Source: Escherichia coli (GTDB lineage: Bacteria > Pseudomonadota > Gammaproteobacteria > Enterobacterales > Enterobacteriaceae). Taken from it: 64,000 nt of DNA. A program made the position numbers and the translations under genes. The first letter of the stretch is position 1. Each line of letters starts with the position of its first letter. This document shows, one piece after another, positions 19,618 through 19,992 of the stretch. The notes under the pieces are model-generated. The model searched no databases and was not told where the DNA came from. It saw only the letters and a list, made by a program, of their open reading frames with translations. Location: NCBI RefSeq assembly GCF_022846255.1, contig NZ_AP025682.1; one strand, 5' to 3'.

Positions 19618-19992
19618 TCACCAGCAAGAAGTGAAAAAACTGTGAGTAAGCGGGTGATAAATGGTAAAAGTCATCTTGCTATAACAAGGCTTGCAGTGGA
19701 ATAATGAGGCCGTTTCCGTGTCCATCCTTGTTAAAACAAGAAATTTTACGGAATAACCCATTTTGCCCGACCGATCATCCACGCAGCAATGGCGTAAGAC
19801 GTATTGATCTTTCAGGCAGTTAGCGGGCTGCGGGTTGCAGTCCTTACCGGTAGATGGAAATATTTCTGGAGAGTAATACCCAGTCTGTTTCTTTGATAAT
19901 TGCGCTGTTTTTCCGCATGAAAAACGGGCAACCGACACTCTGCGCCTCTTTGAGCTGACGATAACCGTGAGGTTGGCGACGCGACTAGACAC
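19618..19992 (-). CDS. yceQ: hypothetical ORF antisense to the rne leader (YceQ-like); doubtful as a real gene
   Basis: 124-aa track ORF in the position where K-12 carries the annotated yceQ; no recognisable domain. Confidence 0.3.

Follow-up and report, generated by a model that had tools for sequence, protein, structure and literature searches.

In the window (the whole 64,000-nt stretch of Escherichia coli DNA that was analysed), the region between the genes rluC and rne carries a minus-strand open reading frame (ORF) that corresponds to the annotated K-12 gene yceQ, and, on the plus strand, elements that serve rne. The features on which the argument turns are the following, with the basis of each assignment in brackets.

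18541–19500, minus strand: rluC, 23S rRNA pseudouridine synthase (ORF; Pfam PseudoU_synth_2 and S4; RefSeq)
19618–19992, minus strand: yceQ-like ORF with a GTG start, 124 codons, 375 nt (ORF listing)
19618–19938, minus strand: equivalent of yceQ b1085, 321 nt and 106 aa, starting at an inner GTG (K-12 NC_000913.3)
19640–19660, minus strand: double DnaA box, located upstream of rne P1 (identical to ChIP-seq site TTATCACCCgcTTACTCACAg; PMC11317965)
19676–19705, plus strand: sigma-70-like site assigned to the rne P1 promoter, TTGCTA, an 18-nt spacer with TG, and AATAAT (sigma-70-like site search)
19712–20048, plus strand: rne5, the RNase E 5′ UTR element (Rfam RF00040; Rfam covariance-model scan)
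19783–19801, plus strand: most conserved core of the leader, the 19-mer GCAGCAATGGCGTAAGACG (upper-case in the Rfam consensus)
19950–19945, minus strand: AAGAGG, resembling a Shine-Dalgarno sequence, 6 nt ahead of the inner GTG at 19938 (minus-strand sequence)
20073–23258, plus strand: rne, RNase E, 1061 aa, with its ATG at 20073 (ORF; RefSeq E. coli annotation)

The yceQ-like ORF lies inside the 572-nt rluC–rne intergenic gap. Downstream of it on the minus strand is a real gene, rluC, and rne is the gene served by the plus-strand P1 promoter and the rne5 leader. A preliminary description of this DNA had placed a minus-strand ORF of 124 codons at 19618–19992, and the ORF listing contains exactly this frame. 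It had also stated that K-12 annotation carries yceQ here, which is right as to the frame, as yceQ of K-12 MG1655 is read in the same frame as the window ORF, but not as to the start: K-12 uses the inner GTG (window 19938, giving 106 aa) and not the outer GTG at 19992. The K-12 product is labelled ‘DUF2655 domain-containing protein’. The region is matched in 5,425 of 5,426 complete E. coli genomes, mostly at 99% identity or more, and the ORF is 100% identical in most of these 5,425; in a spread sample of RefSeq E. coli genomes, PGAP features under the ORF were found in none of 60.

Outside this gap, the neighbourhood offers two observations of a different kind. Immediately downstream of rluC, palindromic matches to Rfam naRNA4 occur on both strands at 18437–18509 (53.9 and 52.9 bits, against a gathering threshold of 59.5), and this segment looks like a REP/BIME-type repeat. 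Directly downstream of rne lies an overlapping pair of plus-strand genes, one for a TacA-like antitoxin at 23346–23684 (PF08681, E = 1.8e-26) and one for a GNAT acetyltransferase at 23666–24175; the pair (23346–24175) looks like a TacAT-type toxin–antitoxin module. In K-12 it is presumably flgL that adjoins rne, and the TacAT-like pair may be a strain-specific insertion.

Examination of the plus strand under the ORF shows what this DNA carries. The rne5 match scores 260.1 bits against a gathering threshold of 180 (E = 1.4e-81) and spans model positions 1–333 of 333; it ends at 20048, directly upstream of the rne ATG at 20073, and the arrangement is the same in related loci. Of the 375 bases of the ORF, 281 lie antisense to this leader, and the remaining 94, which lie upstream of the leader, contain the P1 promoter and the DnaA double box. 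The sole sigma-70-like site in 19450–20250 is the one on the plus strand at 19676–19705, and its −10 hexamer ends 6 nt before rne5 position 1, which fits a transcription start at about 19712. A start there coincides with the beginning of rne5, and we therefore identify the site, from its sequence and position, as the known rne P1 promoter. The rne promoter has been placed inside yceQ in published work (Price et al. 10.1101/038851; Goodall 2018), and the DnaA ChIP-seq site is listed as ‘(yceQ) rne’ (PMC11317965). The view that the ORF falls entirely within the plus-strand DNA of the rne leader and its promoters agrees with this anatomy, in which the ORF lies opposite rne5 (19712–20048), P1 (19676–19705) and the region upstream of P1 with the DnaA box.

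The conserved core of the leader is instructive in both directions of reading. On the plus strand, GCAGCAATGGCGTAAGACG lies in the stem-loop that we take to be hp2, which serves as the sensor of RNase E; on the minus strand, the same positions (19783–19801) translate as YVLRHCC, which are the best-conserved ‘YceQ’ residues. RNase E recognises the rne leader and destabilises its own mRNA, and in this way it autoregulates its own synthesis. Feedback by RNase E through the rne 5′ UTR was reportedly established in E. coli by Jain and Belasco in 1995, by Diwa and co-workers in 2000 and by Schuck and co-workers in 2009, and rne promoters P2 and P3 are said to have been described by Ow and co-workers in 2002.

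To compare the two strands across species, loci were picked by an exact match to the 19-mer GCAGCAATGGCGTAAGACG, with one genome per species, which gave at least 120 loci in the Enterobacterales; the invariance of GCAGCAATGGCGTAAGACG among these loci is thus by construction. The loci listed include Escherichia, Citrobacter, Salmonella, Klebsiella, Enterobacter, Yersinia, Serratia and Pantoea, and further genera among the matches listed are Erwinia, Dickeya, Photorhabdus and others. Among the loci listed (105 Enterobacterales), the stop-to-stop span of the homologous minus frame ranges from 11 to 197 codons, and its ends differ by genus. A narrower alignment comprised 47 taxa, namely the Enterobacteriaceae species representatives with 76% identity or more across the ORF, the window included, and in it we called a frame intact when it kept a start codon and 90% or more of its length. 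Counted from the outer start, the frame is intact in 5 of the 46 non-window taxa and 28 have net frameshifts; counted from the K-12 start, the numbers are 4 of 46 and 21. The intact frames are essentially those of Escherichia, including E. albertii and two representatives named E. coli (L046 and L087). Where the frame fails, the RNA element is still found: rne5 scores above its gathering threshold in 11 of the 12 other loci tested, and those above it include Yersinia (320 bits), Salmonella, Dickeya, Photorhabdus, Shimwellia, Enterobacter cloacae, Klebsiella oxytoca and Pantoea.

Some rne leaders contain inserted DNA. A 121–128-nt insertion in the apical part of one leader stem-loop, at about window position 19852, occurs in Klebsiella oxytoca, in several Citrobacter, in Pseudocitrobacter and also in the Enterobacteriaceae strain RIT691. 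Two Kluyvera have shorter related insertions (108 and 89 nt) at the same site, one of them with a further 124-nt copy at about 19742 (L097), and in Enterobacter sp. JUb54 the insertion measures 252 nt, about twice the length. The loci concerned are L095, L082, L036, L048, L049, L063, L029, L097 and L115. The inserted element ends ...CTTGAAAGACGA(C/T)GAGTATA, and we presume that it resembles ERIC repeats. Four insertion loci were scanned for rne5, with three above gathering (L095, L082 and L097) and one, L115, below.

At the protein level, a homologue search of 5.8 billion proteins returned 32 clusters only, all of them enterobacterial, 68–156 aa long, with different ends and partial coverage, and the precomputed Pfam column reads ‘-’ for every one. 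The E. coli and Shigella cluster members include truncated, frameshifted and alternative-C-terminus forms. In the alignment of these homologues, the conserved part is limited to the YVLRHCC stretch and an adjacent stretch. We considered the 32 clusters as a protein family and rejected the idea, the sole conserved stretch being what the most strongly conserved RNA segments translate to, and there being no protein selection at the DNA level. In Citrobacter, Salmonella and Lelliottia, NCBI and UniRef entries still receive the name ‘DUF2655’.

The openness of the frame was considered in the same way. In other taxa, the counterpart of the yceQ frame is often more open than either of the other two minus frames, and the yceQ phase of the conserved RNA segments has no stop trinucleotides, versus four and five in the other two phases. 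A reading of this openness as selection was rejected: the ends of the frame differ between genera, frameshifts are frequent, and it is the RNA segments that fix the phase.

The pattern of substitution within the ORF gives a more direct view of what is under constraint. Over the 47 taxa, which are phylogenetically related so that pairwise statistics are non-independent, and with an alignment that is uncertain in the variable apical loops, diversity at codon positions 1, 2 and 3 of the yceQ frame is 0.162, 0.131 and 0.172. The same taxa give 0.063, 0.032 and 0.368 for the first 150 nt of rluC and 0.002, 0.001 and 0.234 for the first 150 nt of rne. There is no codon periodicity in the yceQ frame, which is flat in both the closest and the widest taxon sets. 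The dN/dS ratio of the frame is 0.87 over the 47 taxa and 1.07 within Escherichia and Citrobacter; reading the same DNA in five control frames gives 0.48–1.72, a range that covers both yceQ values, and the flanking genes give 0.03–0.04 (rluC) and 0.00 (rne). In the yceQ frame, nucleotide identity (0.849) exceeds amino-acid identity (0.725), and in the flanking genes the order is reversed. The last seven codons of the ORF have a diversity of 0.38, like neutral third positions. We also met one third-position excess (0.19 versus 0.17 and 0.13, with a nominal p = 0.04) in one subset and region; it arose among six uncorrected tests, is absent elsewhere and was set aside.

Constraint in this DNA is instead found where the promoter and the RNA require it. 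The −35 and −10 hexamers of P1 have a diversity of 0.0 and are invariant in the 47 taxa, with a spacer that varies (0.18), and they are nearly invariant in the 105 Enterobacterales. The DnaA double box has a diversity of 0.119 within Enterobacteriaceae versus 0.535 across Enterobacterales, and is not conserved beyond the former. Within the rne5 leader, diversity is 0.141 inside the ORF versus 0.152 outside. The preliminary description had proposed asking whether the minus-strand frame is constrained beyond what the leader explains; with the three codon positions alike and the leader equally variable inside and outside the ORF, we find no constraint beyond that of leader and promoter.

The leader also shows compensatory change. 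When the Rfam rne5 structure is projected onto the 105-sequence alignment, 88.4% of the cells are paired, versus 33–43% when the partners are slid by 1–3 columns. Changes on both sides are seen at 47 of 84 pairs, the double-change cells number 505 versus 113–173 in the slid controls, and none of 500 shuffles reaches the observed values. The variation that is present in this DNA is of a compensatory kind, in keeping with pairing in the plus-strand RNA.

Signals intrinsic to the ORF were examined as well. In hmmscan it matches 0 families at E ≤ 1 in the current Pfam-A and 0 in NCBIfam, and a PDB sequence search gave nothing meaningful, the best hits being antibody light chains at E = 0.52. The earlier judgement that no domain can be recognised is borne out, in spite of the K-12 ‘DUF2655’ label: the current Pfam library gives the ORF no match to that or any family, and the K-12 product name appears to be a leftover label. 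Codon usage was scored as log-odds trained on the 36 long ORFs of the window. The yceQ-like ORF scores −0.15 bits per codon, which is below all 36 real ORFs (0.29 ± 0.09, minimum 0.10), and 38 shadow ORFs score −0.003 ± 0.13 bits per codon.

The preliminary description had seen no convincing Shine-Dalgarno sequence, and this must be divided between the two starts. It stands for the outer GTG (19992), which is without one; the inner GTG, however, has AAGAGG 6 nt upstream. This motif (19945–19950) is the complement of the CCUCUU strand of helix 14 of rne5, a covarying helix in which plus-strand GCCUC pairs with GAGGC and one pair alone has 44 double changes. Pairing in the plus-strand RNA could thus account for AAGAGG without any appeal to coding.

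The length of the ORF can be judged in a similar manner. When the 572-nt intergenic region was shuffled 3,000 times with its dinucleotides preserved, 1.3% of the shuffles had an ORF of 124 aa or longer (P = 0.013). The 64-kb window itself, however, has 17 non-genic shadow ORFs that reach this length, so a gene cannot be argued from ORF length alone. One of the 17, a 560-aa minus-strand ORF at 21564–23246, runs antisense to rne in the repetitive, low-complexity C-terminal half of that gene and illustrates the point clearly.

Published experiments address translation and phenotype. No ribosome-profiling reads were seen for yceQ in three laboratory conditions (Price et al. 2016, 10.1101/038851), and the same study reports that YceQ is without homology, that it is disrupted in some E. 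coli strains, and that transposon insertions in yceQ are viable only in the orientation able to drive rne (Price et al. 10.1101/038851). TraDIS agrees with this (Goodall 2018), and CRISPRi at yceQ acts only when it targets the strand on which it blocks rne (Rousset 2018); both studies trace the seeming essentiality of yceQ to the rne promoter. Codon 8 of yceQ is a nonsense codon in one reduced-genome strain, which is viable. At three yceQ codons, synonymous recoded DNA cannot be introduced, a failure that is expected if it is the nucleotide sequence, and not the protein, that matters. For the absence of translation, for the insertion and CRISPRi phenotypes and for the mechanism of autoregulation, our basis is this literature; the anatomy of the locus, the decay of the frame, the missing coding signatures and the covariation of the RNA are results of the present analysis.

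Taken together, these results make it very probable that this minus-strand ORF of 375 nt is open by chance and is not a protein gene. The preliminary description had leaned the same way, and frame decay, a dN/dS of about 1, flat codon positions, non-genic codon usage and the lack of relatives now give that opinion its footing. We propose that the functional content lies on the plus strand, as P1 with the DnaA double box upstream and a structured rne leader of about 361 nt. Selection on the promoter hexamers and the RNA helices would keep the sequence near-constant within Escherichia, and this constancy would passively preserve there a frame that lacks stops by chance. Beyond Escherichia, stops, frameshifts and insertions of repeat elements interrupt the frame, and the RNA element is kept. 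Damage to rne expression would then explain both why yceQ looks ‘essential’ in deletion collections and why synonymous recoding fails.

An alternative is that yceQ is a genuine but young small basic protein, restricted to Escherichia (106–124 aa, pI about 9.5, 8 Cys), which originated de novo antisense to the rne leader and is translated at a very low level or only in conditions other than those profiled. The intact ORF in E. albertii, L046 and L087, the AAGAGG 6 nt before the inner GTG, an ORF locally longer than chance (P about 0.013) and the retention of yceQ in K-12 annotation speak for such a protein. We nevertheless regard it as very unlikely. Ribosome footprints are absent in three conditions (Price et al. 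10.1101/038851), the codon-8 nonsense mutation and oriented transposon insertions are tolerated, and PGAP does not call the ORF (0 of 60 genomes). Even within Escherichia and Citrobacter, dN/dS is 1.07; the codon usage is non-genic, no minus-strand promoter-like site lies upstream, and truncated or frameshifted variants exist inside E. coli and Shigella. Under the chance-frame explanation, the length of the ORF, AAGAGG, the open frame elsewhere and the identity among E. coli genomes all follow because the conserved RNA lacks stops in one phase.

It is extremely unlikely that the minus strand is transcribed and acts as an RNA, an antisense or divergent overlapping transcript (for example, from an upstream rluC start) that modulates rne by transcriptional interference or by forming a duplex with the leader: the ORF is followed directly by rluC on its own strand, a site near yceQ/rluC is bound by a sigma factor according to a SELEX study, and ExcludonFinder, applied to E. 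coli RNA-seq, reports rne–yceQ as divergent transcription units that overlap, but the excludon call is trivially expected, as annotated yceQ overlaps the rne 5′ UTR, a search of 19450–20250 gave no sigma-70-like promoter on the minus strand, the plus-strand promoter and RNA helices fully cover the conservation, and no cited experiment has an antisense transcript exerting an effect. The broader conjecture that the ORF is either a gene that arose de novo very recently and is confined to Escherichia, or an antisense transcript with a function, expressed only in conditions yet to be profiled, is likewise highly improbable; if it were true, its sequence would be locked by the RNA of the other strand and not by its own function.

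The preferred reading, a chance frame opposite the rne promoter and leader, is not new. The non-coding conclusion on yceQ is already published, rne P1 and rne5 are textbook elements, and our comparative tests are confirmatory: they provide an independent confirmation, from sequence alone, of a conclusion reached by experiment. The result raises no new biological question, and its use is mainly one of annotation hygiene, as yceQ persists in K-12 annotation, in essential-gene lists and in recoding designs. Treating yceQ as a gene has a practical cost, in that synonymous recoding mutates the rne promoter and leader, and fails; codon-replacement projects spend edits on it. The case also illustrates that a conserved non-coding RNA can yield a false protein family with apparent homologues.

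Comparison with known systems places each part of the locus. What this DNA encodes is RF00040 rne5 together with rne P1, as seen in the full-length model match, the position upstream of rne, the covarying helices and the core 19-mer. The yceQ-like ORF differs from rne5 in lying on the opposite strand and in reaching 94 nt beyond the leader, into the promoter and DnaA-box region. With K-12 yceQ it shares locus and frame, being the K-12 106-aa ORF plus 18 upstream codons; the choice of start codon (inner versus outer GTG) is the sole difference and the biology is the same. K-12 yceQ was formerly on essential-gene lists and is non-coding in the existing literature. The ORF resembles the shadow ORFs of the window in having a long open frame, no coding signature and functional sequence on the other strand; however, most shadow ORFs overlap coding sequence, whereas the yceQ-like ORF overlaps a conserved non-coding RNA and a promoter. 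It is this overlap that accounts for both the spurious cross-species ‘homologues’ and the spurious essentiality call of yceQ, which thereby joins the other ‘essential’ non-genes, annotation artefacts of the same type that are explained by polar effects.
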